Shown one piece after another: positions 46 to 38,762 of a stretch of DNA of 38,762 nt. Source of the DNA: an uncultured Deinococcales bacterium. GTDB taxonomy: Bacteria > Deinococcota > Deinococci > Deinococcales > JAAFIG01. Positions within the stretch are counted from its first letter, which is position 1. The number at the start of each line of letters is the position of its first letter. The notes under the pieces were generated by a model, which saw only the letters and a list, made by a program, of their open reading frames with translations, searched no databases and had not been told where the DNA came from. Both the position numbers and the translations under genes were made by a program. Location: NCBI GenBank assembly GCA_964247135.1, contig CAXTTL010000016.1, forward strand, positions 1 to 38,762. The letters are read 5' to 3'.

Positions 46-1527
46 TTATAAACGTTGATATTCTGGATTTGGATTGTCAAGCGTCAAAGCTCTTTCGTTC
101 GGGCTGCGCACACTGGCAAACTGTTCGAGACGTGTTTTCAAAGACACGTAAATGCCGTTGGCAATACTGGACTCGAGTTGTAAATCTGCCAATTGTTTAT
201 TGAGACTCGCGTTGTTGTTTCGTAAAGCGATCAGTTTTGGGTTGAGATCGGTTTTTTCGGCACCGATGGCAACCCGTTCGGTCTCCAGATTTTTAATATC
301 CGCTTGAAGCGAGATCGAGCTTTGCAACAAGCCCTGATAGAGAGGATTGATTTCCTGATTTCTAAGCTTGAGGTTGACCAAATCTGAAAACTTAGCTCCA
401 TTTTCTGTCGCCTTTGCCAGCAAAGTTGGGTCACTGGTAATTTCGCGTTCCAGAACCAGAAGTTTGGGTTGACCTGCCAGTTGAGTCCGTACCTCCACCA
501 ATTTTGAGCTGACAACCGTCAGATCGGTTGTGATTCCCTGCAAACGATTAAGAATGACGCTGATTCTAGAACTCATCGCCGCTTCTTGACCCGCCAAAAT
601 TCCCATATCATATTGTTTGTTGAACGCCAGCAAACGGTCTCGAGCGGCGTTGTACTTGATTTGGGCTTCATTCACTTGACGGGTCAATTGTGCACGTACC
701 TGCTCAAGGTTACCGCCCGCCAAAGACGCCGCCTCTGCTCCACTCACTTGGGCGATGACATTCTCGGCTTTGAGGTAATTTGCGGTCTGGGCGGTTTGTT
801 GAACTTGAGCCTGTTTTAGTGCCTGCTGGGCTTGAACAATCAAATTGATTAAATTGGTGCGTTCGGTGACGGCGTTGTTCAATTCGCCTTGGTCAAGGGT
901 CAAGGTGCTTTTTGTGGTGTAGTCCAAGTATCTGGTCTGAGCCAGATCGCGTGCCCGTGTCGATTTCTCGAGTTCATTTGAAACGGTGTCGATTGAGCTT
1001 TCCATGCGGACTTTTGGAAGTTTATTGAGTTCAATTAGTGTTTGCTTCATCCATTGATTTGACAGAAAGGCTGCCAAATTGCCCGTTGGGGCTTCCGCCG
1101 CCAAACTGATGATTGGAACCAAGACCTGATCGGTGGTCGCCCCAATTTGGGGCTTGGTGAATTTGATTTTGAGAAACTTTTGCAGTCGATCAATATCAAA
1201 ATCGTTTCCGAGCCATGAGGCTGGTACATCTGGCTGAGCTTGAACCAAGGTTAAGAGTGGCTTCAACACCTGATGGGAATTGGCAATGGCTTCAATTTGT
1301 GAGTTGCTAAAACCTTGAACATCGGTGGTTTGAATTTTGGATTCAAATGAAGCTTTGAGTTGGGTGCTTTGCACTGTAAAAGTTGATTCCGCTTTGAAAA
1401 TCGGAGACATCAAAAACAGGGCATAAACGACCCCCAAAATCGCAAAAACCAGCGGAAGAATCAGTATCCAGCGGAGGTGTTTACGAAGGACAAAGAAAAC
1501 GTCACGTATTGAAATCTCGTCTTGCAC
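46..1527 (-). CDS. Wzz/GumC-like polysaccharide chain-length determinant, probably cut by a premature TAA
   Basis: AAGGAG RBS before GTG 1527; N-terminus 'DEISIRDVFFVLRKHLRWI' plus TM helix plus long coiled coil; no second TM before the stop; the frame stays open after the TAA to the window edge. Confidence 0.75.
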   Translation of the reverse strand: MQDEISIRDVFFVLRKHLRWILILPLVFAILGVVYALFLMSPIFKAESTFTVQSTQLKASFESKIQTTDVQGFSNSQIEAIANSHQVLKPLLTLVQAQPDVPASWLGNDFDIDRLQKFLKIKFTKPQIGATTDQVLVPIISLAAEAPTGNLAAFLSNQWMKQTLIELNKLPKVRMESSIDTVSNELEKSTRARDLAQTRYLDYTTKSTLTLDQGELNNAVTERTNLINLIVQAQQALKQAQVQQTAQTANYLKAENVIAQVSGAEAASLAGGNLEQVRAQLTRQVNEAQIKYNAARDRLLAFNKQYDMGILAGQEAAMSSRISVILNRLQGITTDLTVVSSKLVEVRTQLAGQPKLLVLEREITSDPTLLAKATENGAKFSDLVNLKLRNQEINPLYQGLLQSSISLQADIKNLETERVAIGAEKTDLNPKLIALRNNNASLNKQLADLQLESSIANGIYVSLKTRLEQFASVRSPNERALTLDNPNPEYQRL

Positions 1528-1631
1528 TATCGCTCCTTTAACGCTAAAAACGTCTAAAACCAATTACAAAGCCCGAAGATCATACATCGCCAACATGAAA
1601 AACCTGTTCATCTTTTGTCAATCTTTTTAAA

Positions 1632-2321
1632 TCAAACGTTCAGCACTGTAGCATCGATCCACCACTGCGTTTGTGGCGAAATGACCCGGTCTGCTGGAAA
1701 CAAACCCTGTCCCAATTGCGCAAAAATGCTGGCTTTTCCAGCCCCAGTCACAAAAAATTGTACCGTCCGAGCCGCGTTGATCGTGGTCAATCCCAGGCTG
1801 ACCCGAGCGACTTGAGGGCTTAAATCTGGGTTGGGGAAAGCTTCGAGCACCAAGGCTGGATTCTCGAGGGTGGTTTGGTTTGGAAACAGGGATGCGGTGT
1901 GACCGTCGTTGCCCAGCCCAAGATGGATCAGGTCAAACATGGGCAGACCGTCAAACATGACCTCGAGTTGGGCTTGGTACTCGAGGGTGGCGGCAGTTGC
2001 GCCCAGTTCGCCTTTGATGCGGTGAATGTTTTCATGAGGAATGTCGATCTGGTCGAGCAAGTTGGCTCGAGCCATGCCAAAGTTGGAGTCTGGGTGGTCA
2101 GGCGACACACAACGTTCATCGCCCCAAAAGAGGTGAATGTTTGCCCAAGGAACGCCGCCCAGTTGCGCCAGAGCGGCATAAACACCTTTTGGCGTGCTTC
2201 CACCTGCGAGTGCCACACAAAACCGTCCTCGGGCAGCAATAGTTTGGGTCGCTCGAGTTTTAAAATCGAGCGCCGCCGCCTGATAGAGTTCACCCACGCT
2301 GGCAAAAACCTGCTGGTTCAT
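1632..2321 (-). CDS. pgl: 6-phosphogluconolactonase
   Basis: Motifs LAGGSTP, WGDERCV, GLGNDGHTASLFP; ATG 2321 overlaps the zwf stop (ATGA). Confidence 0.95.
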   Translation of the reverse strand: MNQQVFASVGELYQAAALDFKTRATQTIAARGRFCVALAGGSTPKGVYAALAQLGGVPWANIHLFWGDERCVSPDHPDSNFGMARANLLDQIDIPHENIHRIKGELGATAATLEYQAQLEVMFDGLPMFDLIHLGLGNDGHTASLFPNQTTLENPALVLEAFPNPDLSPQVARVSLGLTTINAARTVQFFVTGAGKASIFAQLGQGLFPADRVISPQTQWWIDATVLNV

Positions 2322-3826
2322 GAGGCTGGAAGTTCGCGCCAAACTCGAGGGAGTCTGTCCGAAGATTCGCCAATGAACGTTACCGCGCGTTCTGGTCCCC
2401 AAGTCCCTGCGGCATAGGTTTCTGGGCTGAGGGCAGCATCCAGAAGCGGTTGAATCCAAGCCCAAGAGGCGACGACTTCATCCTCCCTGGGGAACAAACT
2501 GGCATCACCGAGCAAGGCATCCAAAATCAGGCGCTCGTAGGCGGCGGGTCCAAGGTCGCCGTTGTCGCGGTAGTTAAAGTCCATCTCGACCACCCGCAAG
2601 CTCGAGTCCAAACCAGGAACTTTGGCATCGAAACGCAAGCTGATGCCCTCATCTGGGTTGATGTGCAAAATCAATTGATTGGGCGAGGTTTGCTTGGGGA
2701 ACATGTTGAGCGGAGGGCGTTTGAAGACAATCGTAATTTCGGTGTTTTTGACGGGCAAACGCTTGCCGGAACGCACAAAGAATGGCACGCCAGCCCAACG
2801 CCAATTGTCAATTTCGACTTTGATTGCAAAATAGGTGGGCGTTTTGGATTCGGGAGCGACTTTGTCCTCTTGCAAGTAACCGATCACGGGTTGAGGAGCG
2901 TTGTTCTTGTCCAGAATTGAGCCAGCCGTGTACTGACCCAAAATGCTGACCGCCGCCGGATCGGTCAGTGGGCGCAGGGACTGTATGACTTTGACTTTCT
3001 CGTCGCGCAGGGCATTCGCGCCCAAGGTAAAACCACCGTCTTTGTAACTCGAGACTGGTGGTTCCATCGCAATTAAGGTCAGGAGTTGCATCACATGGTT
3101 TTGCATCATGTCGCGCAGCACGCCAGCCTCTTCGTAAAAACCGCCGCGCCCCTCGAGACCCAGATTCTCGGCGACGGTAATTTGCACGTGATCGACGTAA
3201 GTTCGATTCCAGAGCGGCTCGAAGATGGTGTTGGCAAAACGCAGTGAAAGAATATTTTGTACGGTTTCTTTGCCTAGAAAGTGGTCGATGCGGTAAATCT
3301 GGGATTCCTTGAAGGCGGCATGAAGCACGGTATTGAGTGATTGTGCCGTCTCGAGGCTGGTGCCAAACGGTTTTTCGACGATGATGCGGGTGTAACCCTG
3401 GTCTTCGTCGTTTAAGCCCGTTGCCGCCAGTTGCTCGGCGATGATCGGAAACACACTGGGCGGCACCGAGCAGTAAAACAACCAATTGTGAAAACCGGCA
3501 GCCTCGAGCTTGTCGCGCAAAGCTTGAAATTGTTCTTTGCTGCCAAATTCGGTGGTTTGGTAATCGAGTGCGCTCGAGAACCGCAGCCATGCCGCCTCGT
3601 CAATCACTCCAACCTCGCTGGACGCCTCGAGCGCCGTGCGGGTCAGTGCCTGATATTCTTCTTTGGTACTGGCTGTTCGCGCCACGCCGATGATCGCAAA
3701 CTTTTCGGGCATGTTGCCGTCCTTGACCATGCGGTACAGGGCGGGCAGGAGTTTTCGCTTGGTCAAATCGCCACTCGCACCAAAAATCACGATGGCGGCA
3801 GGCTCGAGCACGTTTTGAAAAGTCAT
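2318..3826 (-). CDS. zwf: Glucose-6-phosphate 1-dehydrogenase
   Basis: GASGDLTKRKL, EKPFG, YRIDHFLGKE, RWAGVPF; AAAGGA RBS before ATG 3826. Confidence 0.97.
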   Translation of the reverse strand: MTFQNVLEPAAIVIFGASGDLTKRKLLPALYRMVKDGNMPEKFAIIGVARTASTKEEYQALTRTALEASSEVGVIDEAAWLRFSSALDYQTTEFGSKEQFQALRDKLEAAGFHNWLFYCSVPPSVFPIIAEQLAATGLNDEDQGYTRIIVEKPFGTSLETAQSLNTVLHAAFKESQIYRIDHFLGKETVQNILSLRFANTIFEPLWNRTYVDHVQITVAENLGLEGRGGFYEEAGVLRDMMQNHVMQLLTLIAMEPPVSSYKDGGFTLGANALRDEKVKVIQSLRPLTDPAAVSILGQYTAGSILDKNNAPQPVIGYLQEDKVAPESKTPTYFAIKVEIDNWRWAGVPFFVRSGKRLPVKNTEITIVFKRPPLNMFPKQTSPNQLILHINPDEGISLRFDAKVPGLDSSLRVVEMDFNYRDNGDLGPAAYERLILDALLGDASLFPREDEVVASWAWIQPLLDAALSPETYAAGTWGPERAVTFIGESSDRLPRVWRELPAS

Positions 3827-3928
3827 GGGTTTCCTTTGAAGGGAGGCATTACCCATTATCTTAGCGTTTTTGGAGTGTATGTGGAATGAAATACACCTTT
3901 GAGGGCTGCCAGCCCTTAAACTGATGCG

Positions 3929-5428
3929 GTGAGTGAGCCAAAGCTCGAGACCCTTGAATCCATTTTGAACGCCCCTCCAGTCATCAAACTCGAGGGTGTC
4001 AACGTTGAATTCAACGCTCGGGCGGTGCTCAGAAACGTCTCGCTCGAGGTGGCGCACGGCGAGTTTATCGCCATCATCGGACCGAGCGGCGGCGGCAAAA
4101 GCACCCTGCTGCGGGTGATCGCGGGACTGTTGAAAGCCAACGGCACGGTCAGTGTTCAAGGGCAACCCGCCGTGGTGTTTCAAGATTACCGTTTGCTGCC
4201 CTGGCGCACGGTGCGCCAAAACGTGGCACTGCCCAGGGAATTAAACGGCAAGGGTTTGGCTCCAGACGACGTGCTGAAACAGGTCGGAATGCTCGAGTAC
4301 GCCAATTTGTACCCGCATCAGCTCTCGGGTGGAATGCGAGCCAGGATTGCGATTGCCAGGGCACTCGCGCAAAATGCTGAGGTGATCCTGTTCGACGAAC
4401 CCTTCGCCGCTCTGGACGCCCTGGTGCGCGAACGCTTCAACCTCGAGACCAAAAAAATTCACCGCAAAACCGGCAAAACCATCGTTTTTGTGACCCACAG
4501 CATCCGCGAGGCGGTCTACCTGGCGGATCGTGTGGTCGTCCTCAAAGACGGCGTGATCGACACGATTCTCGAGACACGAGGGCAAGGACGAATCACCAGT
4601 TTCACCGAACCGCTCGAGGCAGAATTGCGCTCAAGGCTCGGTTTGGGCGACAGCACTTTTGTCGAACCCACGCCCAAAGTGGTGCGTTTCCCCTGGGAAA
4701 TTCTGGGCATTTTGGCGGTCATCAACGCGTTATTGATTGCCTGGAATATTCTTGTGCCGGAATCCAGCTATTTCTTCCCAAGCCCAGGCAAAGTCTGGCG
4801 GGCGCTCTTGGAGAACCGCGACAACCAATTTGTCACCGGCACCCTCGAGACGCTGCGCATCACGGGCTTAGGTCTTTTATATTCGCTCGGCATTGGCATT
4901 CCCATCGGTTACGCGATGGGCAAAATTCGGGTGCTCGAGCGGCTGCTCTCCCCTTTTGTGGTGGCGCTTCAAGCCGTGCCAATTGTTGTCATCACGCCGC
5001 TTTTGGTGCTCGGACTGGGTTACGGCACCAGCTCGAGGGTCTTGATCGCCACGCTGATTTCAATTTTTCCAGTCTTGATTTCCACGATGGTCGGCGTGCG
5101 CGAGGTGGACCGCGTTTATAGAGAAGTTTTTAAGACCATCGGCTCGAGCGCCTGGGGAATGCTCTCTAAACTCGAGTTCCCTGGGGCACTGCCCGTGATT
5201 TTGAGCGGTTTGCGTAGCACCGCGTCGCTGGCATTGATTGGCACGGTGGTCGCAGAATTCACGCTTTCGGGCGGAGGCGGACTGGGTTATATTGTGGTCA
5301 ACGCCAAAAATCAGGGACGCTACGATGTCTCATTCGCCTCGGTTTTTGTTTTAATGGCGCTCGGCATCGGTTTGTACGCCATCATTGCGATCCTCGAGCA
5401 AATTGCGCTGCGCTACCGCAGGCGTTAA
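3929..5428 (+). CDS. Fused ABC transporter ATPase + permease (TauB/SsuB- plus TauC/SsuC-like)
   Basis: Walker A GPSGGGKST, LSGGM, FDEPF, FVTH, followed by about 6 TM helices; TAAACT 6 nt before GTG. Confidence 0.88.
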   Translation: MSEPKLETLESILNAPPVIKLEGVNVEFNARAVLRNVSLEVAHGEFIAIIGPSGGGKSTLLRVIAGLLKANGTVSVQGQPAVVFQDYRLLPWRTVRQNVALPRELNGKGLAPDDVLKQVGMLEYANLYPHQLSGGMRARIAIARALAQNAEVILFDEPFAALDALVRERFNLETKKIHRKTGKTIVFVTHSIREAVYLADRVVVLKDGVIDTILETRGQGRITSFTEPLEAELRSRLGLGDSTFVEPTPKVVRFPWEILGILAVINALLIAWNILVPESSYFFPSPGKVWRALLENRDNQFVTGTLETLRITGLGLLYSLGIGIPIGYAMGKIRVLERLLSPFVVALQAVPIVVITPLLVLGLGYGTSSRVLIATLISIFPVLISTMVGVREVDRVYREVFKTIGSSAWGMLSKLEFPGALPVILSGLRSTASLALIGTVVAEFTLSGGGGLGYIVVNAKNQGRYDVSFASVFVLMALGIGLYAIIAILEQIALRYRRR

Positions 5429-5530
5429 CAAAAGCGTCAAAAGCCCCGAATGAAGTCGGCGTGGGCTGCTACAATCTGGGTTGCTCGAGGTTTGGTGAAT
5501 AGCCAAACGATGAAAATAAGGTCAAGGGCA

Positions 5531-5554
5531 GGGCGCAGCAAGCAGCGCCCCTAC
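5531..5554 (-). repeat. GTAG-type REP, second subtype
   Basis: Minus strand reads GTAG-GGGCGC-TGCTTGCT-GCGCCC (GTAG tag plus hairpin). Confidence 0.6.
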
Positions 5555-5580
5555 GGTCTGAAACGATCAAAAGGTGCATT

Positions 5581-7137
5581 TTGAATTATTGGCGTAAAAA
5601 CTTAAAACCGTTGCTCGACGACGAAATCGGCACGATGTTCACGCAAGCCTCGACCCGCGTGGCGTTGTGCTTTCCCAACAAATACTCGGTGGCGATGGCG
5701 TCGCTGGGCTTTCAAGTCATTTACCGCATGTTTAACCAAGAACCAGGTTTTGCCTGCGAACGCGCCTTCCTGCCAGACGATGTGGACGCCTTCAAGCAGA
5801 GTGGCGAATACCTGCCGATGCTCGAGAGTGGGAACCCCGTAGGCGGGGCGGATTTGCTGGCGTTCAGCGTCTCGTTCGAGCTTGACTTGACCAACATCAT
5901 CAGGTTTCTCGAGCTTTCGGGCTTAAACCCCTGGCGCGAGGAGCGCGACGAATCCGACCCCGTGGTGATCGTCGGCGGACCGCTGACCTCGAGCAACCCT
6001 TACCCGCTCGCGCCATTTGCCGACGTGATTTGCATCGGTGACGGCGAGCTGATCGTACCGATCATTGCCGAGGCGTACCGTGAAGCATCAACCCGAGAAG
6101 AATTTTATGAGATGCTCGAGGGTCGCCCAGGCATTTACCTGCCTGACCGCATGGGTTTTGAACCGATGTGGGCTACTGCCCCCGTCGAAAAACTGCCCGC
6201 CTACAGCCAGATTGTCACGCCGCGTTCCGAGCTTTCCAACATGTTTTTGGTTGAGGCGCAACGCGGCTGCCCACGCCCCTGCACCTTCTGCCTTGCCCGA
6301 ACGATGTACGGACCAAACCGCAACAACGAAGCACAAAACCTGCTGGACTGCATTCCCGACTGGGTGACCAAAGTTGGACTGGTTGGCGCGGCACTGTCCG
6401 ACTTTAAGCACACCAAATACGTTGGACGTACCCTGACCGAACGCGGCATCAAATTGGGTGTCTCGAGCATCCGTGCCGACACCGTGGACACCGAGCTTGC
6501 CCAGATTTTGCGCGACGGTGGCTTGCGCTCGTTTACTGTTGCCAGCGACGCCGCCAGCCAACGATTGCGCGACTGGATGAAAAAAGGTATTTCTGAAGCC
6601 GACCTCACCAAAACCGCGCACATCACCAAAGACCTCGGCTTTAGCGGCTTGAAGGTCTACATGATGATCGGACTGCCACCCGAAAACGACGACGATATTA
6701 CCGAACTGATCGAATTCTCGAGAAGCCTTTCTAAAATTACCAAAGTCGCAATGGGCATCAGTCCATTCGTGCCAAAACGCCACACGCCACACCACGCCGA
6801 CCCGTTCGCGGGGGTGGACGTGATCGAAAAACGCTTCAAACGCATTCAAAAAGAATTGCGCCGCGACCTCGAGCTGCGGAACGTCTCAGCAAAATGGGCG
6901 TGGGTCGAAAATGTTATTGCGAGGGGTGGTCCAGAGATCGGACGCGCCGCGTACCTTGTCAAGGACTTTGAGAGTTACAGCTCGTGGCGCAAAGCGCTCG
7001 AGGAAATCGGTTGGAAAGACGAATTTGCTCAGAATGTTGTGACGCTCGAGCAAACACCAGGACAAGTCATTAAACCCGACGTGCTCGAGATGCCACGGGC
7101 GAACATGACCGATTTCATGGTGGCAAGCGGGGATTGA
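5581..7137 (+). CDS. B12-binding-domain-type radical SAM protein
   Basis: RGCPRPCTFC (CxxxCxxC); N-terminal FPNKYSVAMASLGFQ and FSVSFELD; KVYMMIGLP; TTG start. Confidence 0.88.
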   Translation: MNYWRKNLKPLLDDEIGTMFTQASTRVALCFPNKYSVAMASLGFQVIYRMFNQEPGFACERAFLPDDVDAFKQSGEYLPMLESGNPVGGADLLAFSVSFELDLTNIIRFLELSGLNPWREERDESDPVVIVGGPLTSSNPYPLAPFADVICIGDGELIVPIIAEAYREASTREEFYEMLEGRPGIYLPDRMGFEPMWATAPVEKLPAYSQIVTPRSELSNMFLVEAQRGCPRPCTFCLARTMYGPNRNNEAQNLLDCIPDWVTKVGLVGAALSDFKHTKYVGRTLTERGIKLGVSSIRADTVDTELAQILRDGGLRSFTVASDAASQRLRDWMKKGISEADLTKTAHITKDLGFSGLKVYMMIGLPPENDDDITELIEFSRSLSKITKVAMGISPFVPKRHTPHHADPFAGVDVIEKRFKRIQKELRRDLELRNVSAKWAWVENVIARGGPEIGRAAYLVKDFESYSSWRKALEEIGWKDEFAQNVVTLEQTPGQVIKPDVLEMPRANMTDFMVASGD

Positions 7138-7224: not shown

Positions 7225-8046
7225 ATGGCTGAAATCAAGGCAAAACAAGTGACAAATACGCTCGAATCGGCTCGAGCCGATTCGGCTTTGTTGCTGGCTC
7301 GAGTCACCCCTCAAGGGCGGGTATTGATGCGGGGTTTGCACGCCAGTTTTGTCGAGCTGACCAAGCTGGCGGCGCATTTGGCTGGTTTTGACTTTGATGG
7401 TTACATTCTGGCACTCGAGCCTGATGACAGCGTTTGCGCGATGGCGTTGTTGTTTGAAGGCAATTTGGTTTGCGCCAGCGCCATCAACGATGGTCATACG
7501 CTGTGGGGTGACGGTGCATTGATTGAACTCGCGCAACGTTTTACCTCGGGTGCGGTGCTCGAGGTGAGTGCGCTCGAGCGAGATTTGATTCACACAGTTT
7601 GCGGTCTGTCAGATCGGGTCTGGCGCGTGCAACCTGGCGACAATTTTTCTGGCATTCGCGGTCTGGGCGACGGACGCGTGGCGTTGTATCACGATGGCAG
7701 TATTTTGGCGCACATCAAAGCCAATTACCGCGAGACTGGCGCATTTCCAGCACCGCTTCGACCCGCGCATTTGACCCTGCCCAGGGTCGTTGGCGCCTGG
7801 GCGACCGAACGATACGGTTTTACCCTGCGCGGACGCGATGCCGTCAACCCAATCACCGACCATTACAACCGTGCCAGAGCCGCTTACGGCAAACCCGCGC
7901 TCGAGGTTTTGGGACAATTGGGTCGCGGCAAAACCCCGCTCGAGGTGGCTCAGACGCTCGAGAAAGACATCGCAGGTCTTGAAGGTTTGGTCGAAACGTT
8001 TGTGCGTGAAGGATTGTTGCACCGTCGGCGCGATCCTGACATGTAA
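7225..8046 (+). CDS. Hypothetical protein with possible C-terminal winged helix
   Basis: 273-aa ORF with typical codon usage; 'GKTPLEVAQTL...FVREGLL' looks wHTH-like. Confidence 0.7.
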   Translation: MAEIKAKQVTNTLESARADSALLLARVTPQGRVLMRGLHASFVELTKLAAHLAGFDFDGYILALEPDDSVCAMALLFEGNLVCASAINDGHTLWGDGALIELAQRFTSGAVLEVSALERDLIHTVCGLSDRVWRVQPGDNFSGIRGLGDGRVALYHDGSILAHIKANYRETGAFPAPLRPAHLTLPRVVGAWATERYGFTLRGRDAVNPITDHYNRARAAYGKPALEVLGQLGRGKTPLEVAQTLEKDIAGLEGLVETFVREGLLHRRRDPDM

Positions 8047-10032: not shown

Positions 10033-10192
10033 GGTTAAATCTTGACACGAATCCAACTCGAGCGGCGCGTCTTGGTTGTAAAAAGCTCGAGTGTGGTTTT
10101 AAGCCGAGTTTAACGACCAGTGATTTGGCGTTAGCGGCAAAAGTGTGTTGACCTTGGTTTGTTCAAAGTTTTTCTTTAAACAAAGTTTATTG

Positions 10193-10245
10193 GTAGGGTG
10201 CGCCTTGCGCACCGTCAGTCACGTGCTCATGGTGCGCAAGGCTAC
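10193..10245 (+). repeat. REPIN copy with a 6-nt deletion in the right arm
   Basis: GTAGGGTGCGCCTTGCGCACC + 17 nt + GGTGCGCAAGGC[GCACCC missing]TAC. Confidence 0.85.
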
Positions 10246-10336
10246 AGTTTTGGAATTTTTGAAAGAAACATTCTGGTTTCTCGAGGGGCAACATACTTTT
10301 GGGGGTATCCCAACGATTTGTGCAAATGGTTTGCAG

Positions 10337-10606
10337 TCATGATTCGGAATTGTAAATCTTCTCGAGATCAATTTGGTAATGGTTGGCGAGCGCTATCAAA
10401 CAGTTCAGGACATGACTGATTTCTGTGCCGAGACGTTCCAGACTGGGTTCTTTTTGTCAGTGTGCTTTTGAACCAATCCGTCCGAGCAAGGCAACTTCTT
10501 GCGCAACCTCGCCAAGTTCTTCGGTGGCGGCAAGCATAAATTCTGCACCGCTAAAAGATGAATTATTCATTTTCCGCACTCGAGTTTGCAATTCCGAGAT
10601 CGTCAT
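10337..10606 (-). pseudogene. MazG-like nucleotide pyrophosphohydrolase interrupted by an in-frame TGA (10457-10459)
   Basis: Hand translation: MTISELQTRVRK...ATEELGEVAQEVALLGRIGSKAH*QKEPSLERLGTEISHVLNCLIALANHYQIDLEKIYNSES*; starts 3 nt after the GNAT stop. Confidence 0.8.
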
Positions 10607-10609
10607 GAT

Positions 10610-22034: not shown

Positions 22035-22850
22035 ATGTCAGATTGGACGCGAACACTTTTTGACCGCGCCTACATCAAGTCCGAAGGCGCGGGGTTGCAC
22101 CTTCGGCTCACGCGCCACGAATGCCGTCTTGCCATCAAGTTGCTCGAGTTAAAACCAACAGATCAAATTCTGGATTTGGCGTGCGGGCATGGTCGGCACA
22201 GCCTCGAACTGGCAAGACAAGGTTTTGAACAGGTGACAGGTTTGGATGCGAGCGCTGTGGCAATCGAACAGGCTCGAGCTTCTGGGGTGGGTACAACTGT
22301 CAGGTTTGTTCTTGGTGACATGCGAACTTTGGGGTTTGATGCCGAATTTGATGCGGTTTTCAGTTTTTACAATTCAATTTTTTACTGGGACGATCAAACC
22401 CATTTGAATATTTTTCAAGGCATTTACAGGGCATTAAAACCTGGCGGACGCTTTTTGATGGATTCACACAATCCGTTTTTGATTGTCCATAACAAATTAT
22501 TGCAACAGCATCGGATTTTTGGGCGAATGTTGAGGGTTCGTCAACAATTGGGTAATTTAAAAGCCTGGTTTCGCCATGTTTTTCGCAACCCTGGTCAACC
22601 CAGAGCGTGGCACAAAACGATTGGACAGTTTGATCCAAGAACGGGCGTGATGCGTGGCATCAAACACTTTCATACCGGCACCGAGCACGAAACACACCCG
22701 CTCGAGTTGCGATTTTATACCTTTACCGAAGTCAAAAAATTACTCGAGCAAGCCGGTTTTGAGGTTAAAAGCGTTGTGTCTCATACGGGTGGTCCCTTTG
22801 TAGACAGTAGCCCTCGTTTTGTAGTGACGGCGCTCAAAAAGCAATCCTGA
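22035..22850 (+). CDS. Class I SAM-dependent methyltransferase
   Basis: ILDLACGHGRH, VTGLD, GDMR, FDAV, ALKPGGRF. Confidence 0.92.
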   Translation: MSDWTRTLFDRAYIKSEGAGLHLRLTRHECRLAIKLLELKPTDQILDLACGHGRHSLELARQGFEQVTGLDASAVAIEQARASGVGTTVRFVLGDMRTLGFDAEFDAVFSFYNSIFYWDDQTHLNIFQGIYRALKPGGRFLMDSHNPFLIVHNKLLQQHRIFGRMLRVRQQLGNLKAWFRHVFRNPGQPRAWHKTIGQFDPRTGVMRGIKHFHTGTEHETHPLELRFYTFTEVKKLLEQAGFEVKSVVSHTGGPFVDSSPRFVVTALKKQS

Positions 22851-24618: not shown

Positions 24619-25335
24619 ATGGCAACATTACTCAGCCTTGACTGGGATTATTTTTCGGGCAGCGCCGAACTCGTTTTCGATTCGCCATTCTGGGGAACGC
24701 GAGACACGGATTTTGACCGAACTGAAGCCTGGATATCTCGAGCTTTAAAGCGTGGGGGCTTTGGCTTTGAGGTCTTAAAAGAAGATTTTCCTCTGTTTGG
24801 AAATCCTCTTCAACTCAAGAAACTTTTCGATCTCCCCTGTTATGCCAGCGTAACCCACAGCGACGCTTACGCCCTGATAAAACATTTGGGCATCTCGAGC
24901 GTGCTGAATTTGGATTCGCACCACGATTTGTTTTCCTCGAGCGGCGATCCAACTCGGGTGCGTCCTGGAAATTGGGCTGGGCTGGCGCTCGAGCACGGTC
25001 TAATCTCGAGTTACACTTGTTTTTACCCCACTTGGCACGAGCATGTGCGGGTGACTGAAGGTTTTGATCTGGGTCGTACCAGGCTGGAGCTAAACGAACA
25101 ATTTGCCCGTAGGGGATGGTCTGAGACCATCCCCTACACTATCCCTTCCTTAGAACGTGGAATGCCAAATCTCGAGAAAACCGAATTTGACGCGGTGTTG
25201 TTGGTGCAAAGCCCTGCCTGGACCAATCCACTTTACGATGCTGTGTTCCTCGAGTTATGCCAAAAGCTCAACGCACAAAGCCTCGCGCCAGTTCTCGAGA
25301 GAGCCTTCAGACACGACATCAAGTCGGTGGTGTGA
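24619..25335 (+). CDS. Hypothetical protein, arginase/UPF0489-like metal motif
   Basis: LSLDWDYF, NLDSHHD, QSPAWT. Confidence 0.6.
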   Translation: MATLLSLDWDYFSGSAELVFDSPFWGTRDTDFDRTEAWISRALKRGGFGFEVLKEDFPLFGNPLQLKKLFDLPCYASVTHSDAYALIKHLGISSVLNLDSHHDLFSSSGDPTRVRPGNWAGLALEHGLISSYTCFYPTWHEHVRVTEGFDLGRTRLELNEQFARRGWSETIPYTIPSLERGMPNLEKTEFDAVLLVQSPAWTNPLYDAVFLELCQKLNAQSLAPVLERAFRHDIKSVV

Positions 25336-27526: not shown

Positions 27527-28807
27527 CTATGGATACAAACCACGCAAGGCTCGAGCCTCCAAAACCCGAGTACAAGCCGTGATGAACGTGGCGGTGCGCA
27601 TGGTCACTTTCTTGTCGAGCGCAACATCCCAAATGCCTTTAAACGCTTCAATCATGATTTTCTCGAGCCGTTTGTTGATCTCGTCTTCGGTCCAGAAGAA
27701 ACTCGAGAAATCTTGCACCCATTCAAAGTAGCTGACCGTCACGCCGCCCGCGTTGGCGAGCACGTCTGGGATAATGATCGTGCCTTTTTCGGAGAGGATA
27801 TCATCGGCTTGGGGCGTGGTCGGTCCGTTCGCACCCTCGACAATGATTTTGGCTTTGATTTTATTGGCATTCGCAGCCGTGATTTGCTTCTCGAGCGCGG
27901 CTGGAATCAGAAATTCGGTTTCGATTTCCCAGAAGTCTTTGGGGTCAATCATTTCGGCGTCTTTATAGCCTGCGATGCTGCCCGTTTTGGCGATATGCTC
28001 GAGCACATCGTGCGGATTGATGCCGCTGGCGTTGTGAATCGTGCCGTTGACATCTTGAATCGCAATCACTTTTGCGCCGTGGTCGTGAAAAATCCTGGCG
28101 CTGGCGTTGCCGACGTTGCCAAAACCTTGCACGATCACCCGAGCGCCCTCGAGTGACAGGTTGATGCGCTTTGCCGCCTCCGCGCCCGCCACGAAAACAC
28201 CCCGCCCTGTCGCGTCACGTCGCCCCAGAGAGCCGCCGAGCGCGATTGGCTTGCCTGTGACCACACCGGTCGCCGTGCGCCCCTGGTTCATGCTGTAGGT
28301 GTCCATCATCCAAGCCATCGTCAATTCGTTGGTATTCACATCTGGCGCGGGAATGTCTTTGTCGGGTCCGATCAGAATGTTGATTTCACTCGTGTAGCGC
28401 CGCGTCAATTTCTCGATTTCATGAATTGAGAGCTTGCGCGGGTCAACCCGAATGCCGCCCTTCGCGCCGCCGTAAGGCAAGTTCACCGCCGCGTTTTTGA
28501 CCGTCATCCACGCGGACAGCGCCATCACTTCGGACAGCGTTACGTCTTGGTGGTATCGCACGCCGCCCTTGCCAGGACCCCTCGAGGTATTGTGTTGCAC
28601 CCTGTAACCCTCAAAATGCGCGATGCTGCCATCGTCGAGTTGGATCGGGCAATCGACAATCAAAATGCGCTTTGGACGCTTCAGGGTTTCGACCCAGTAC
28701 GCGAGTTTGCCCAGGTACGGCGTCACGCGGTCGATTTGCTCGAGGTAAATTTCCCAAGGTCCAAGGTTGTCTTTCGCCAGGTACGACGGAACTTCATGTG
28801 TGTGCAT
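27527..28807 (-). CDS. gdhB: Glutamate dehydrogenase (downstream paralog; GdhB in Thermus nomenclature)
   Basis: [49 protein letters not shown]. Confidence 0.93.
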
Positions 28808-28851
28808 TGTGACTCCTTCAATTGGGCGCATGACGATGCGCCACGAAATTT

Positions 28852-30135
28852 TTATGGATACAGACCGCGCAAATTCGTGCTCTCGTTAATCCTCGAGATT
28901 GCCAGCACGTAAGCGGCAGTCCGCAAATCAGTCTTTTTTTCGTTGGCAACGGCGTAAATCTCATCCAAGGCTCGAGCGATGTGTTTTTCGAGGTTGGCGT
29001 TGATCTCGTCCAAACTCCAGTAAAAATTATTAAAATCTTGCACCCATTCGTAATAGCTGACCGTCACGCCGCCCGCGTTGGCGAGCACGTCTGGAATCAC
29101 AATTCTGCCCTCTTGGCGCAAAATGGTATCTGCGTCTCGGGTGACCGGATGGTTCGCGCCCTCGGCAATGATTCGCGCCTCAACTTTGGCGGCGTTGCCC
29201 GCATGAATCGAACCTTCCCTAGCACTGGGCACGAGAATATCCACTGGAAGGGTAAAAACGCTGTCCCGATCAATTTTTTTTGCGCCCGCAAAATTCTTGA
29301 CCGATCCAGTCTCGAGCTTGTGGGCAATCAGGGCGCGAATGTCCAGCCCGTCGTGGCGGTAAATCGCGCCCGAACTGTCGGAAACCGCCACCACCCGCAC
29401 GCCGCGCTCGAGCATTCCCAGCGCGGCGTAACTGCCGACCACCCCAAAACCTTGCACGGCGGCGCTCGAGTTAGCCAAATCAATGTTTTCTCTGGCAGCA
29501 ACCCCAAAAATGCTGTTGGCAACGCCGCGCCCTGGGGCTTCGAGTCGCCCGAGGCTGCCGCCCATGCTGACGGGTTTTCCGGTCACGACGCCGGTGCTGG
29601 TCGTGCCTTTGTTCTGGCTGTAGGTGTCCATGATCCACGCCATGGTTTGCTCGTCCGTACCGGTGTCGGGCGCGGGAATGTCTTTGTCGGGTCCGATCAG
29701 ATCGACCAGTTCGCTGGTGTAGCGCCGCGTCATGCGCTCGAGTTCGTCGCGGGAAAGGGTTTTGGGATTGACGTCGATCCCGCCCTTCGCACCACCAAAC
29801 GGCAGGCTCATGACCGCGCATTTGATCGTCATGCTGGCAGCCAAGCCGCGCATTTCGTCCAGGTTTAAACCCGCCCGGTACCGTATGCCGCCCTTGCCTG
29901 GACCCCTCGAGATGCTGTGCTGAACGCGGTAACCCGTAAAAAACCGCACGCTGTTGTCGTCCATGCGCACCGGTACGCTGACCGTCACCATGCGTTTGGG
30001 GTGACGCAAATACTCGAGGGTTTCGCTGGCGGCGTTCAAATGCGGCAGTGTCGCCTCAATTTGCTCGAGGAACGCGTGCCAGAGGTTAAGTTGCTGATCC
30101 GGCGGTGAGGAGTTGTGGTCTTCGGGTTTTGTCAT
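28852..30135 (-). CDS. gdhA: Glutamate dehydrogenase (upstream paralog; GdhA position in Thermus nomenclature)
   Basis: [42 protein letters not shown]. Confidence 0.9.
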
Positions 30136-30311
30136 GCGGCTGCCTCCACAAGAATGTTCTGGGCGATGGACACAAGATTTGATGCTCGAGTTTAACGCTC
30201 GAGTTTGATGATTTGCCACTTCGATGTTGCGTGTTTGAGTATACAACTGGCGAACGTTTGTTTGTTTTGGGATTGTGACGAAAAACTTCTCGTCAAACTC
30301 GAGTTAAAGCC

Positions 30312-30370
30312 GTAGGGTGCGCCGTGCGCACCGTTGGACACGTACTCTTGGTGCGCACGGCGCACCCTAC
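30312..30370. repeat. Intact REPIN (two inverted GTAG-REPs)
   Basis: GTAGGGTGCGCCGTGCGCACC-17 nt-GGTGCGCACGGCGCACCCTAC; perfect 21-bp arms, each with an internal hairpin. Confidence 0.9.
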
Positions 30371-32960: not shown

Positions 32961-32972
32961 ATGGCTCGAGTT

Positions 32973-34326: not shown

Positions 34327-34332
34327 ACCGTT

Positions 34333-34635: not shown

Positions 34636-34705
34636 CTGTGCCTGCTTCCTGGGGTTCGCCCAAAGTTCAGTATAGTCAGAATCTGAAACAACAAAGCTTT
34701 GGGGA

Positions 34706-35353
34706 TTACAGGTTTTTCTCGAGGTAAAACTCGACGTTCACTTCGCTTGTCAACTCTCGGGTGGCTTTGAATTCAGTACCAATTTCAACCCTGGCTCTTT
34801 TAGGTGCTCGAGAAAGTTCTTGGTTCATCCAATCCCCGCCAAAATTCAGGCTTTGGATTCGTTCTGGCATCTGACTCGAGTCGCTGGCACTGCGAATGCC
34901 CAGCACAGAATGCCCCACCGCATTCGCCATCGCGCTGGCTTTGTCAAACGCTTTTTTCATGGCTGCCGCACTCAACTCGAGCATGATGGCATCGGTTTCA
35001 AAAATCCATTCGAGTTGCTCGAGTTGCACATTTTTGGCACCGGTAATCACGCCCAAAAAGTCTGGGAGTTTGGAAAAATCAGTTAGGGTCAAATCGAGTT
35101 TGAATTCGGCTTTGGAGCTTTTGCCCAAAAGTCCAGCATCCACTCGGGCACTCACCGATTTGACGTTGAACTCGGCGTCTGTCGCACCGAGTTCTTTAAA
35201 TTTTGTCACCAAATCTTTGAGGATTCTCGAGCGGTCCAGCGCCGCGTTGCCAAACAAAAACGTTTCGCCCTCAACCGTAAAGTGCAGTTTGGCGAGGCTG
35301 GCGGTGATGTCCTGGCTGGCTTTGGCGCTGACGCGCAAAATGCTTTCGGTCAT
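34706..35353 (-). CDS. SIMPL (DUF541) domain protein
   Basis: 'AAAMKKAFDKASAMANAVG' and terminal 'SEVNVEF'; ATG 5 nt after the upstream stop. Confidence 0.7.
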   Translation of the reverse strand: MTESILRVSAKASQDITASLAKLHFTVEGETFLFGNAALDRSRILKDLVTKFKELGATDAEFNVKSVSARVDAGLLGKSSKAEFKLDLTLTDFSKLPDFLGVITGAKNVQLEQLEWIFETDAIMLELSAAAMKKAFDKASAMANAVGHSVLGIRSASDSSQMPERIQSLNFGGDWMNQELSRAPKRARVEIGTEFKATRELTSEVNVEFYLEKNL

Positions 35354-35358
35354 GTTTT

Positions 35359-36204
35359 TTAGTCTAATCCAAAACCATAAAACCTTGCCGCCGTGCCACC
35401 CAGGATTTGCGCCTTCTGATCGGCGGTCAGTTTCTCGAGCAACACGTTTGTCTCCTGCCAGACTTTGGTGTAATCCCCAGCCAAAATCGCCACAGGGTGA
35501 TCGCTGCCAAACATCAATCGTTCCGCCCCAAAACACCCAAAAGCATGAACCACATAAGGCTCGAGCTGGCTGGCGTTCCAAGTTTCCCAATCGGCGGCGG
35601 TGTTCAAACCCGAAACTTTGGCGTAGACATTTTCATGTTCACTGGCGGCTTTCAGCAAATCCGCCCAGGGTTGCCAGCCACGCGCAAAAATGGGCGGTTT
35701 GGACAAATGATCGATCACCATTTTCAGTTTCGGAATTTTGGTTGCCACCAGCGCCGCGATCTCGAGGTGACGCGGTAAAACGCTGACCACATCAAACGTC
35801 AAATTCTGTTCTGCAAGCATCTCGAGCGTCGTCAAAACTTCGGGCTTCAGCAAGTAATCCGCGTCGGGTTCGTCATGAATCAAATGGCGCACGCCTTTGA
35901 ATTTCGGGTGTGCTCCAAAAACCTCGAGCGCCCGAGCCGCAATTTCGGGTTCGGTCAGCGGAATCCAACCCACCACCGCTTTGATCCATGCAAACTGTTC
36001 TGCCTGCTCGAGCATTGAACGCGTGTCTTCAAAACCATTCGCCGCCTGCACCAAGACCGTCCCAGAAATGCCCGCCGCCAACAACTGAGGCTCAAGTTCT
36101 TCGGGCGTGAAGCTGCGATTTAAAACGCCATGCTCGGGTTTGAGCCAAGGGTAAGCAACCCGTTCGAGGTTCCAAAAATGCTGATGCGCGTCAATACATG
36201 CCAT
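35359..36204 (-). CDS. Amidohydrolase family protein (L-fuconolactonase-like)
   Basis: IDAHQHFW, VLVQA, GVRH, IDHLSKP, KVSG, FGSDHP. Confidence 0.88.
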   Translation of the reverse strand: MACIDAHQHFWNLERVAYPWLKPEHGVLNRSFTPEELEPQLLAAGISGTVLVQAANGFEDTRSMLEQAEQFAWIKAVVGWIPLTEPEIAARALEVFGAHPKFKGVRHLIHDEPDADYLLKPEVLTTLEMLAEQNLTFDVVSVLPRHLEIAALVATKIPKLKMVIDHLSKPPIFARGWQPWADLLKAASEHENVYAKVSGLNTAADWETWNASQLEPYVVHAFGCFGAERLMFGSDHPVAILAGDYTKVWQETNVLLEKLTADQKAQILGGTAARFYGFGLD

Positions 36205-36232
36205 GCTCGATCATATTGTATTAAACTCGGGC

Positions 36233-37420
36233 ATGAACAACTTGGACGCCCGAGCGCACTTTCCAGCTTTTCAAAACGGTTTTAGCTTCCTGGACAACGC
36301 CGCCGGCGCTCAAGTGCCAAAGCAGTGCATTGACGCGATCTCGGGTTTTCTGAGCACGGCATCTTGCAATGTCGGAATGCCGTACCCTGGTTCGCAAACC
36401 GCCACGAACATTAAAATCCAAACGCGCCTCGAGACGAGCGAATTTTTAAATTGCAAACCAAGCGAAGTTGTGATCGGCACGAGCGCCACATCACTCACCT
36501 TTCAACTCGCACGGGCGTTCTCGAGAATCTTCAAACCTGGCGACGAAATCATTATTTCCGAACTCGAGCACGAAGCCAACGCCAGCCCGTGGCGCAGCCT
36601 TGAGGCGCAAGGTGTCGTCATTAAAATCTGGCGGGCGAAATTTCCTGAAAGCCGTTTGGATTTGGACGATTTACGCGCCCTGATCTCGAGCCGCACCAGA
36701 TTGCTGGCGGTCTGTTCCGCCGCAAATTCTTTGGGAACAGCTCCAGATGTGACGGGCGCTGCCGCCATCGCCAAAACCGTAGGCGCTTGGACGATCACCG
36801 ACATGGTGCATTACGCCCCGCATCATTTGCCAGACGTGCAAAAACTCGGCGTGGATTTCGCGGTGTTCTCGAGTTACAAGGTTTTTTCGACGCACGCCGC
36901 GTTCATGTTCGTGAAAGAAGGCTTGCTCGAGCAACTTCCAGCCGACAAACTGCATTTTATTCCAGATGACAGCCCGCAAAAATTTGAGCCAGGCACGACC
37001 AACCACGAATGCTTGGCGGGCTGGCTTGGGACGCTCGAGTATCTGCGCACAGTGCTGGGCGGTGGCGCAACCGGACGCGCTGGCTTGCAAGCCGCCTACC
37101 AGCAAATCGAAAGCCTCGAGCAACCACTGATGGAATTTGCGCTCGAGAAATTCAAAGACATTCCAGGATTGAGTTTTTACGGCGAACCCAGCACTTCAGG
37201 GCGCGTCGGAACGTTCTGCATCAACATGCCAGGGCTGGAAGCCATGCAAGTTGCCGAACGGCTTGCCACGGCAGGTGTGGGCGTTGCGGCGGGGCATTAC
37301 TACGCCACCATGCCGATGACCGCGCTCGGGTTAATGCCAAACGGGGCGGTGCGGGTCAGTGTGGCGCATTACAACACCAAAGAAGACCTCGAGAAACTGA
37401 TGGGGGCGTTGAAGGATTGA
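36233..37420 (+). CDS. Cysteine desulfurase-like class V aminotransferase
   Basis: LDNAAGAQVP, EHEANASPW, DMVHYAPH, SSYKVF, AVRVSVAHYNT. Confidence 0.9.
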   Translation: MNNLDARAHFPAFQNGFSFLDNAAGAQVPKQCIDAISGFLSTASCNVGMPYPGSQTATNIKIQTRLETSEFLNCKPSEVVIGTSATSLTFQLARAFSRIFKPGDEIIISELEHEANASPWRSLEAQGVVIKIWRAKFPESRLDLDDLRALISSRTRLLAVCSAANSLGTAPDVTGAAAIAKTVGAWTITDMVHYAPHHLPDVQKLGVDFAVFSSYKVFSTHAAFMFVKEGLLEQLPADKLHFIPDDSPQKFEPGTTNHECLAGWLGTLEYLRTVLGGGATGRAGLQAAYQQIESLEQPLMEFALEKFKDIPGLSFYGEPSTSGRVGTFCINMPGLEAMQVAERLATAGVGVAAGHYYATMPMTALGLMPNGAVRVSVAHYNTKEDLEKLMGALKD

Positions 37421-37450
37421 ATACACACCCTTTTCTGCTAAACTGAACCC

Positions 37451-37702
37451 ATGCTCGCACTCGAGTCTCAAACACAAGAGATCATGGCATCGCTCGAACA
37501 AACCGAACCCGTTGCCATTCTACGAAACGGTGTTATCACGGGTTATTACGTGCCAGTCATGCCAGCACATGAGGACACGCAAGCCATTCGTCTGGCAGCC
37601 CAGAATATGCAGGAATGGTTGGAAGCTCGAGGGATCAGCGAAGATGATTTGATTGCCGATTTTAATACGTTGCAGAAAAGTCAACGTCATAAAACTGCAT
37701 GA
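37451..37702 (+). CDS. Probable antitoxin (Phd/YefM-like)
   Basis: 'EPVAILRNGVITGYYVP', acidic C-terminus, ATGA overlap with the PIN gene. Confidence 0.7.
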   Translation: MLALESQTQEIMASLEQTEPVAILRNGVITGYYVPVMPAHEDTQAIRLAAQNMQEWLEARGISEDDLIADFNTLQKSQRHKTA

Positions 37703-38124
37703 AGCGCATTGTCATTGATGCCAATGTTTTAATTCGTGCAATTCTTGGGGTCAAAGTTGCAAACCGCATTGCAGATCATGCCACATTCGTACAATTTTTG
37801 ACCACCGAGATCGCTTTTCTCGAGGCGCAAAAGCACTTACCAAACGTGCTCAGTCGGCGTGGCGCAGAGATTGAACGGGTACGATTGAGTTTAGAAGATT
37901 TGGAACGCTTAAAACAAAGCGTGATTGTGATTCCGACAGAAATCATTGCTCCTTTTGAAGCCCAAGCACGTCTACGGTTACTCGAGCGTGACCAAGATGA
38001 CTGGCATTTGTTGGCGCTCTGTTTAGGTTTGCAAACACCTTTATGGACAGAGGACAACGATTTTTTCGGGGTTGGGATTACAACCTGGAAGTCTGCGTTA
38101 ATTGATCTTTTCTTAAATGCTTAA
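37699..38124 (+). CDS. PIN-domain toxin
   Basis: IVIDANVL, E, RDQDDW, LWTEDNDF acidic PIN motifs. Confidence 0.88.
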   Translation: MKRIVIDANVLIRAILGVKVANRIADHATFVQFLTTEIAFLEAQKHLPNVLSRRGAEIERVRLSLEDLERLKQSVIVIPTEIIAPFEAQARLRLLERDQDDWHLLALCLGLQTPLWTEDNDFFGVGITTWKSALIDLFLNA

Positions 38125-38154
38125 CGTTCTTAGGCAAAATTACTTGGAACAATT

Positions 38155-38631
38155 TTAAAGACCATTGAACTGCTTCAGAATTTTTGGTTCGATTGGTGAT
38201 CCTTTGAAAAGATGGACTTCATAAAAATCATCGCCTGTTGAGCCATTCTCAAAAACTTTGTCAAGATCGTTATAGCAAATCAACGCTTCGTAAATTCCAG
38301 GATCAACTTCTATACGGGCAGCGTCTGGAAAATAATCTGTGCAGCCCGCAATAACAATCCGTCCAGTATCTACCTGAAGACTTGCTTCCACAACATGATC
38401 GCTGCTTGAAAAATCAATTTCTGGTCGGAAATCATGAATGACAACCAAAACTGGAACTTCCATATCCCTGACCGTGCCAATTCCAATTGCGTATGGAGCT
38501 ATGGCTAGCATTCGTTGCACTGCTGCTTTCGACCACGAATTCGCAAGACTTCCTTTTGTCATATCATCATCTCGAAGATAGAATTGGTGGTAATCTGCAA
38601 ATAATTTGTAGTCATAAACGCGAATAATCAT
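38155..38631 (-). CDS. Hypothetical protein, AT-rich
   Basis: 158-aa ORF (ADYHQFYL, DHVVEASL, GCTDY); AT-rich codons, no CTCGAG. Confidence 0.75.
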   Translation of the reverse strand: MIIRVYDYKLFADYHQFYLRDDDMTKGSLANSWSKAAVQRMLAIAPYAIGIGTVRDMEVPVLVVIHDFRPEIDFSSSDHVVEASLQVDTGRIVIAGCTDYFPDAARIEVDPGIYEALICYNDLDKVFENGSTGDDFYEVHLFKGSPIEPKILKQFNGL

Positions 38632-38762
38632 ATTTTCACCATCTTTCGAGCTTTTGGATATTCAGAGTTGCGCCTCGAGTAAATCCTAAACGCGTAACTC
38701 GGTTCTGCATCATTCGCTTCAAACATCAATTTCCTGCCAATCAATGGTTCGCTTCCAAGTCT

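Follow-up and report, generated by a model that had tools for sequence, protein, structure and literature searches.

What accounts for the frequency of a single six-base palindrome, CTCGAG, in a stretch of DNA from an uncultured member of the Deinococcales, and is this word a highly iterated palindrome (HIP) of the kind known from cyanobacteria? The stretch, referred to below as the window, is the whole of the 38,762-nucleotide contig CAXTTL010000016.1 (C16) of a draft genome, G000, which comprises 5,091,702 bp in 386 contigs, is 84% complete and has a GC content of 52.7%. It contains 264 exact copies of CTCGAG, about one per 147 bp, the first at positions 172-177 and the last at 38674-38679. 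Dinucleotide-preserving shuffles of the window gave an expectation of 7.33 copies (standard deviation 2.4, maximum 13), and none of 100 shuffles reached 264. The count and extent given in a preliminary description of this DNA are thereby borne out. The results below indicate that CTCGAG is, very probably, a DNA motif that is maintained at the level of the DNA itself.

The abundance extends to the whole genome, in which CTCGAG occurs 33,925 times, or once per 150 bp (6.7 per kb), and every contig carries it, at 2.6-11.3 per kb. It is the commonest hexamer by a lead of more than two-fold, the runners-up, GCTCGA and TCGAGC, being its own shifted words. The ratio between observed and expected copies is 24.8 on base composition, close to the roughly 25-fold enrichment claimed earlier for the window, 35.2 on an order-1 and 14.4 on an order-2 Markov model; it falls to 3.45 and 1.24 on order-3 and order-4 models, which absorb the motif's own pentamers and so constitute an unfair null. 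Among the 180 permutations of the same letters CTCGAG ranks first; after GCTCGA and TCGAGC the next has 4,054 copies and the median is 1,176, a result that leaves the earlier claim standing. The flanks of the sites are near background, the exceptions being confined to G at -1 and C at +6, which reach 38-39%, and no 10-12-mer dominates. A longer repeat or mobile element is thus ruled out, and the unit is the bare hexamer. Words that differ from CTCGAG by one mismatch are neither enriched, as precursors would be, nor depleted.

Genes were represented by the longest open reading frames (ORFs) and not by the output of a gene finder, giving 4,550 ORFs of at least 100 amino acids (aa) that cover 86.9% of the genome. 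In the window, 142 sites are read as CTC-GAG, 28 as xCT-CGA-Gxx and 46 as xxC-TCG-AGx, and 50 lie outside the ORF calls, at least seven of these falling in an ABC-transporter ORF (3929-5428) that the proxy dropped. The examples singled out previously are real: GCT CGA GCC occurs in the ORF at 7225-8046, and TCG AGG (Ser-Arg) in both glutamate dehydrogenase (gdh) genes. Genome-wide there are 17,581 sites in the CTC-GAG frame (61% of those within ORFs), 4,582 as xCT-CGA-Gxx and 6,703 as xxC-TCG-AGx, compared with about 3,150, 340 and 580, respectively, in five within-gene shuffles of synonymous codons. The excess over a shuffle that preserves both amino acids and codons is therefore 5.6-13-fold, in every frame, and the assertion that Leu-Glu codon bias is insufficient holds.

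Within ORFs there are 6.52 sites per kb, compared with 7.61 elsewhere, so that the sites are at least as common outside ORFs as in them; that they are frequent in intergenic DNA had been noted for the window. In spacers of 40-400 bp the density is 7.41 per kb between divergent, 9.13 between convergent and 8.80 between tandem ORFs; that such densities are reached at a GC content of only 45-48% argues against a cause at the level of RNA or translation. An RNA-level motif is unlikely, given that divergent spacers still carry 7.4 sites per kb. The density peaks directly after stop codons, at 13.8 per kb. Codon context points the same way. CTC makes up 15.5% of Leu codons when GAG does not follow and 91.7% when it does, and GAG makes up 32.9% of Glu codons generally and 93.7% after CTC. 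Accounts based on codons, dipeptides or translation are refuted by the codon shuffle, the codon context and the spacer densities taken together.

The motif has left its mark on the proteins of this bacterium. CTCGAG encodes 77% of the 22,872 Leu-Glu dipeptides, and Leu-Glu is the most over-represented dipeptide of all, with an observed to expected ratio of 2.40 (Ser-Ser has 1.63). In 37 orthologue pairs comparing G000 with outgroup loci, Leu-Glu occurs 64, 75 and 44 times in G000 as against 27, 50 and 31 times in the three outgroup sets, which show Leu-Glu at just 14 of 49, 23 of 61 and 8 of 34 of the positions where G000 has a CTCGAG-encoded Leu-Glu. From this excess it follows that the DNA motif has driven amino-acid replacement, creating additional Leu-Glu dipeptides. 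The odds of finding CTCGAG at Leu-Glu are 62-105 times the background codon odds (natural logarithm 4.1-4.7); read in terms of mutation and selection, these odds amount to a scaled advantage of about 4-5. CTCGAG thus provides a clear example of a DNA-level force that changes protein composition, with Leu-Glu raised 2.4-fold.

The trait is shared throughout the family to which G000 belongs, here termed f1. All 18 other genomes, from five genera, hold between 12,028 and 35,442 copies, or 4.3-6.8 per kb as computed with rounded genome sizes, and CTCGAG takes first rank in each of the 12 f1 loci sampled, over a GC range of 46-62%. The comparison with relatives proposed earlier is therefore answered in favour of the motif, with the proviso that genomes within one family are non-independent samples. 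Across a sample of 301 genomes of the phylum, with the row for G265 left out, the distribution is graded and patchy. The 100 genomes of genus g7 are depleted, with just 26-1,010 copies each; those of genus g9, which are Thermus-sized, have roughly 0.6-1.6 copies per kb and GAGCTC in similar abundance, as expected from a richness in CTC and GAG codons, and in a g9 locus the excess is essentially limited to the CTC-GAG frame. We infer the labels 'Deinococcus-like' for g7 and 'Thermus-like' for g9. For the glutamate dehydrogenase of the window, the best relatives that bear a name come from Deinococcus (72-75% identity), and the loci of these have 0-2 sites. Several genera of families f5 and f2 reach 2-3.5 copies per kb, and loci of the intermediate lineages G030 and G019 show a weaker excess that nevertheless extends to all frames and beyond ORFs.

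One contrast lies within a single genus, g36 of family f3, where G253 has 24,536 copies in 3.5 Mb and its genus-mate G197 has 683 in 2.3 Mb. In the loci sampled from these two (L302-L316), G253 (47 kb, 51% GC) has 7.5 sites per kb in all frames, 9.6 per kb outside ORFs and no GAGCTC, and G197 (96 kb, 50% GC) has 0.30 CTCGAG per kb, 25-fold fewer. The two are equidistant from G000, with median protein identities of 48.5% and 47.4%. This pair, the series of strong, intermediate and absent lineages, and the juxtaposition of resident and foreign DNA are natural contrasts in which the responsible agent might be sought.

Are individual copies retained, or is the density merely kept up by new ones? 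Orthologous window DNA from five congeners is 84.7-86.3% identical to that of G000, and the six genomes are related in a star-like manner. Among 1,016 aligned site comparisons the congener has kept the site intact in 808 (79.5%), compared with 41-46% for control hexamers, so that the comparison of orthologues, too, upholds the preliminary description. Divergence inside and outside sites is 0.057 and 0.171 in non-ORF DNA, 0.110 and 0.290 at third codon positions, 0.045 and 0.094 at first positions and 0.028 and 0.061 at second positions. Inside the motif, conservation of the codons CTC, GAG, CGA and TCG is 84-89%, and outside it only 50-55%. Protection stops at the edge of the hexamer, divergence being at or near background 1-2 bases away, which rules out a flanking 'repair shadow'. 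Compared with neutral positions, copies are thus about three times better kept from species to species, and the six bases alone are protected. At 178 site positions aligned in all six genomes, 69 sites (39%) are common to the six, as against 9% of 60 control hexamers; there are also 27 private presences and 35 private absences. The near balance of these last two figures means that site density holds steady while individual sites turn over slowly. CTCGAG is, then, genuinely a highly iterated palindrome; it consists of six bases of DNA and nothing more, and is found about once per 150-230 bp across family f1. The claim of a HIP-like palindrome outside cyanobacteria, created or retained by a genome-wide process, agrees with every line of evidence brought to bear on it, namely shuffles, permutations, spacers, relatives and orthologues.

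The arrangement of the sites along the DNA is marked by short-range repulsion and not by periodicity, a possibility raised earlier for which no evidence was obtained at distances up to 600 bp, the range of the pair-spacing analysis (the largest G000 contig is 115.6 kb); the peaks of a Fourier transform were harmonics of the analysis window. The probability that a Leu-Glu dipeptide is encoded as CTCGAG is 0.33 when the nearest other site lies within 9 bp, 0.49 at 10-15 bp and 0.70 at 16-24 bp, and rises further through 0.75 to 0.84-0.85 at 61-200 bp. Site pairs 7-12 bp apart occur at about 0.3 times the plateau frequency, and the plateau is reached near 70 bp.

Newly acquired DNA of low GC content lacks the motif. 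Of the six longest site-free intervals inspected, five consist of ORFs of 26-36% GC without a single site and with dense flanks (C13:11892-14536, C70:14167-16418, C13:4757-6745, C1:102560-104482 and C135:845-3324), and the sixth (L180) has ORFs of 44-51% GC. The low-GC cassettes are sharply bounded and are probably recent horizontal acquisitions. None of the six intervals has an Rfam match, which rules out ribosomal or other structured RNA as the cause of their lack of sites. In practical terms, CTCGAG is a sharply defined compositional signal by which these genomes can be binned and foreign DNA in them recognised. Among viral contigs, at least 120 stretches with three close sites were found; most of the dense contigs also carry 17-76 copies of GAGCTC, have a high GC content and look codon-driven. 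Only one of the matches listed, L286 (an IMG/VR contig of 9.7 kb), resembles the signature of family f1, with 57 copies of CTCGAG (5.9 per kb, 33 of them outside ORFs) and no GAGCTC; a search of 31 relatives gave no DNA match to it.

In cyanobacteria the function of HIP1 (GCGATCGC) has been debated for three decades among methyl-directed repair, chromosome architecture and DNA uptake. CTCGAG resembles HIP1 and the alternate HIPs in being a short, GC-rich, lineage-wide palindrome present in all frames and in intergenic DNA. Like HIP1, in the accessible part of Xu et al. 2018 (PMC5861425), it is conserved beyond the conservation of codons, its constituent codons being better kept inside the motif than outside. 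It differs in being a hexamer and not an octamer, in lacking a GATC or CGATCG core, in belonging to another phylum, and in its density of about 4,300-6,800 per Mb, compared with 300-2,700 per Mb for HIP1 (Elhai 2015, PMC4390886, in the part available). The same portion of Xu et al. 2018 describes a HIP1 distribution that is periodic at 10-90 kb. No report of iterated CTCGAG in Deinococcota was found among the literature matches listed, which covered main texts without supplements or subscription journals, those on Meiothermus being judged by title or abstract. The accessible main texts of Elhai 2015 and of a 2026 GBE paper (PMC13756078) mention neither CTCGAG nor Deinococc*. As for the CTCGAG methylome, 5-methylcytosine at this word is reported in a haloarchaeon only (PMC8112702, as far as the available part of that paper goes). 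CTCGAG therefore represents a second, independent case of an iterated palindrome, with a different and shorter word, in another phylum and at higher density, and the phenomenon is tied neither to the HIP1 sequence nor, apparently, to the HIP1 methylases.

No DNA methylase or nuclease is present among the 30 of the window's 40 ORFs that were scanned, so that the earlier statement that no responsible enzyme is visible there stands for these; the window encodes ordinary metabolic and regulatory proteins, including one generic small-molecule methyltransferase (22035-22850). CTCGAG is the recognition site of XhoI and PaeR7I. A profile for the XhoI family (PF04555) found no nuclease in G000, in the 18 other f1 genomes or in 14 control genomes; as a positive control, it found one in the related genome G021, adjoining a PF01555 methylase. 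An XhoI-type restriction-modification (R-M) system is rejected as the cause since none of the 19 f1 genomes yielded such a nuclease. A TaqI_C domain was likewise not found in G000. Restriction, moreover, normally purges its own site, as G000 does for GAGCTC, CCGCGG, CCSGG and GCGGCCGC.

The avoidance of palindromes in this genome goes very far. About 18 six-base palindromes fall below 0.25 of their order-4 Markov expectation in G000, which has no copy of GAGCTC or GCGGCCGC, one of GGGCCC, three of CGGCCG, five of CGTACG, seven of GGATCC and 11 of CCGCGG, and just 380 of GGCC in 5.09 Mb. Four R-M pairs were found in which a nuclease adjoins a methylase, of the SacI, Eco29kI, NotI and MvaI/BcnI families, the SacI-family nuclease being paired with a Dam-class methylase. 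We take their targets to be GAGCTC for the SacI family, CCGCGG for the Eco29kI family, GCGGCCGC and CGGCCG for the NotI family and CCSGG, which stands at 0.07 of expectation, for the MvaI/BcnI family. Against the efficiency with which this lineage removes restricted sites, the excess of CTCGAG stands out more sharply still. Avoidance of GAGCTC in family f1 is wider than the SacI-linked system detected: 16 of the 19 genomes have at most 25 copies, and orthologues of the SacI-linked methylase occur in just six of the 18 others. In other CTCGAG-rich genomes GAGCTC is rare in G253 (30), G207 (73) and G019 (62) and frequent in G196 (1,197) and G181 (4,391).

Among the processes that might maintain CTCGAG, the reading that we favour, and hold only tentatively, is that the sites are selected for their occupancy by a CTCGAG-specific factor that these lineages encode. 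Each copy would be kept as a target of this putative factor, which is probably homodimeric since the site is palindromic, and which may have a local action throughout the chromosome, such as organising the nucleoid or labelling the cell's own DNA. Sites would contribute independently unless they lie within about 25 bp of each other, closer pairs interfering as expected from a protein footprint. Independence beyond about 25-60 bp, together with the very high density, fits such a footprint better than it fits an uptake signal acting at the level of DNA fragments. Neither an orphan methyltransferase of the classical, conserved type nor a restriction system of the XhoI type seems to be the factor.

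Several points weigh against selection for occupancy. No candidate for the factor emerged from the enzyme searches of G000 and family f1, and positional conservation does not separate selection from site-restoring repair or conversion. Two close copies make up an inverted repeat, so that an avoidance of small hairpins could instead lie behind the interference at 15 bp or less. Conservation was measured in one 38.7-kb region, at 65-85% alignment coverage in five congeners, and the DNA counted as outside ORFs takes in some genes that the proxy missed. When changes were polarised by strict consensus (at most one lineage deviating, which resolved 61% of columns), 77 losses were counted and three gains; at face value this would mean net decay in the genus, and it is the sole result to point that way. 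The polarisation was set aside in favour of the presence spectrum because the densities of the six species are equal and private presences roughly match private absences, which suggests a bias towards conserved columns.

A rather unlikely alternative is maintenance linked to methylation, of the kind that Elhai put forward for HIPs in cyanobacteria, in which an orphan methyltransferase, coupled to methyl-directed mismatch repair or to very-short-patch (VSP) repair, creates and restores sites, the methylase itself being variable or having escaped detection. Restoring repair would account for conservation that is confined to six bases, and G000 is rich in methylases, with at least 11 (two C5, four N4/N6, one Dam-class, two MmeI-like, one HsdM-like and one of 1,499 aa), in an assembly that is incomplete. 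Six of these (C14, C36, C178, C207, C320 and C4) were followed through the family, leaving out C21, C192, C112, C169 and the BcnI-paired C189, and each has orthologues in just 2-6 of the 18 other f1 genomes. Enzymes of PF01555 were not found in G011 (a single-contig genome) or G015, nor C5 methylases in G008 or G015 at E<=1e-10, with the caution that the relatives are mostly drafts, 57-94% complete, in which 'not found' does not equal absent. The gamma-class methylases of about 500 aa in five good genomes are 22-41% identical to one another, bar one pair at 68%, and their G000 homologue is just 25-27% identical; on these identities they do not appear to be one orthologous group. With six G000 enzymes and four enzyme classes examined, none was found to be family-wide, which speaks against a conserved orphan methylase, although the specificity of such enzymes is not legible from their sequences. 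Orthologues of the 466-aa N4/N6-type methylase of G000 (C4:28577-29977) in G005 (C76:182942-184300) and G012 (C72:42092-43402) are each interrupted by two stop codons and look like decaying methylase genes. The sole methylase tied to CTCGAG by adjacency is that of G021, whose best match in G000 is just 25-26% identical. In E. coli, Dcm/Vsr VSP repair likewise favours one short palindrome, raising CCWGG, and it does so modestly, while depleting the neighbours that derive from T:G mismatches. CTCGAG is enriched about 25-fold, no Vsr was found in G000 (84% complete), and the motif's transition-derived neighbours TTCGAG, CTTGAG and CCCGAG stand at 1.76, 1.16 and 1.41 of the composition expectation, with no depletion; a Vsr-type signature was accordingly rejected. 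The link to methyltransferases that had been drawn by analogy with HIP1 is thus not upheld by the f1 genomes searched, in which no cognate family-wide enzyme was found. According to the available part of Elhai 2015 (PMC4390886), cyanobacteria with an alternate HIP do carry a methylase for that alternate HIP.

A molecular drive resembling DNA uptake, in which a competence or recombination component prefers CTCGAG-bearing DNA and alleles spread by transformation, is less plausible and must be considered unlikely. Its appeal is that the motif is family-specific, present in all frames and in spacers, imprinted on peptides and absent from foreign cassettes, that close sites are scarcer than random, and that density peaks just after stop codons, all of them traits of uptake sequences. 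Uptake signal sequences (USS) of Pasteurellaceae and DNA uptake sequences (DUS) of Neisseriaceae are similarly family-specific, iterated through genes and spacers, constraining for peptides and rare in foreign DNA. They are, however, asymmetric, 9-12 nt long and present about once per kb, whereas CTCGAG is a palindrome of 6 nt with near-random flanks and, at about 6.7 per kb, some seven times denser, so that in form it does not match an uptake sequence. Since foreign DNA contains a hexamer by chance every few kb, a single copy would discriminate poorly, and saturation per fragment would be expected at the kb scale and not at the observed 25 bp or so. To our knowledge, natural transformation in cultured Thermus and Deinococcus shows no sequence preference, and it is in keeping with an uptake role that Thermus-like and Deinococcus-like genomes lack strong CTCGAG enrichment. 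An uptake role for HIP1 itself is proposed in the accessible part of the 2026 GBE paper (PMC13756078). Neutral replenishment, whereby a context-dependent bias of mutation or repair makes new copies without retention of old ones, is very improbable: about 20% of sites do differ between congeners, and private presences exist, but retention at the same position is well above that of controls, the one-mismatch neighbours are unremarkable, and close sites suppress each other. Finally, the chance that the sites are a by-product of Leu-Glu content, of a preference for CTC and GAG or of codon-pair bias is practically negligible. The predominance of the CTC-GAG frame within ORFs would suit this account, as would high-GC Thermus-like loci, where a milder excess is mostly in that frame and GAGCTC is abundant alongside; in G000, by contrast, the excess over the codon shuffle spans all frames, site density is higher in spacers than in ORFs, neither CTC nor GAG is a majority codon unless the two adjoin, and the reverse dipeptide word GAGCTC (Glu-Leu) is missing altogether.

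A broader proposition may be put forward, albeit a doubtful one: that CTCGAG is the tag of a genome-wide system without a dedicated DNA methyltransferase, one that has been repeatedly gained and lost in Deinococcota and that rewrites proteins. If this were so, iterated palindromes would be a general means by which bacteria mark or organise their own DNA and not a cyanobacterial peculiarity, and the contrast between G253 and G197 would provide a direct route to the responsible gene.

The features of the window that illustrate the distribution of sites are collected in the table, together with the R-M loci of the genome.

Table. Coordinates of CTCGAG-bearing features in the window and of R-M loci elsewhere in G000
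Feature	Position	Strand	Basis
CTCGAG array, 264 dispersed hexamers in genes and spacers	172..38679	.	exact count compared with shuffles
ORF with 8 sites in two frames (6 CTC GAG = Leu-Glu; 2 GCT CGA Gxx = Ala-Arg-x)	7225..8046	+	no Pfam match
Inter-ORF spacer with 5 sites (10057, 10086, 10280, 10361, 10579), an example of non-coding copies	10057..10609	.	site list and ORF limits
Glutamate dehydrogenase with 8 sites in all frames (5 Leu-Glu, 2 xxC TCG AGx, 1 GCT CGA GCC)	27527..28831	-	ELFV_dehydrog domains
Paralogous glutamate dehydrogenase with 11 sites in all three frames	28852..30246	-	domain match; 50% identical to the paralogue at 27527..28831
R-M loci of G000	C320:1061-2985, C178:2930-4752, C207:3-1650, C189:4077-5632		nuclease and adjoining methylase

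The tandem glutamate dehydrogenase pair (27527-30246, minus strand) is kept adjacent in most genomes of the order that were searched. The 499-aa ORF at 3929-5428 (plus strand), which has ATP-binding cassette (ABC) ATPase and permease domains, overlaps the 5' part of the glucose-6-phosphate dehydrogenase (G6PD) ORF at 2318-4219 (minus strand) by about 290 nt; the listed starts probably lie too far upstream. The window also contains short, dispersed hairpin elements that resemble repetitive extragenic palindromes (REP) and share GTAGGG...CCCTAC ends, at 5523-5556, 10193-10242, 25108-25145 and 30312-30370. Such elements are present in many copies in all five congeners, and none contains CTCGAG. 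Two of them have central 16-mers that are found in G000 in 47 and 17 copies.

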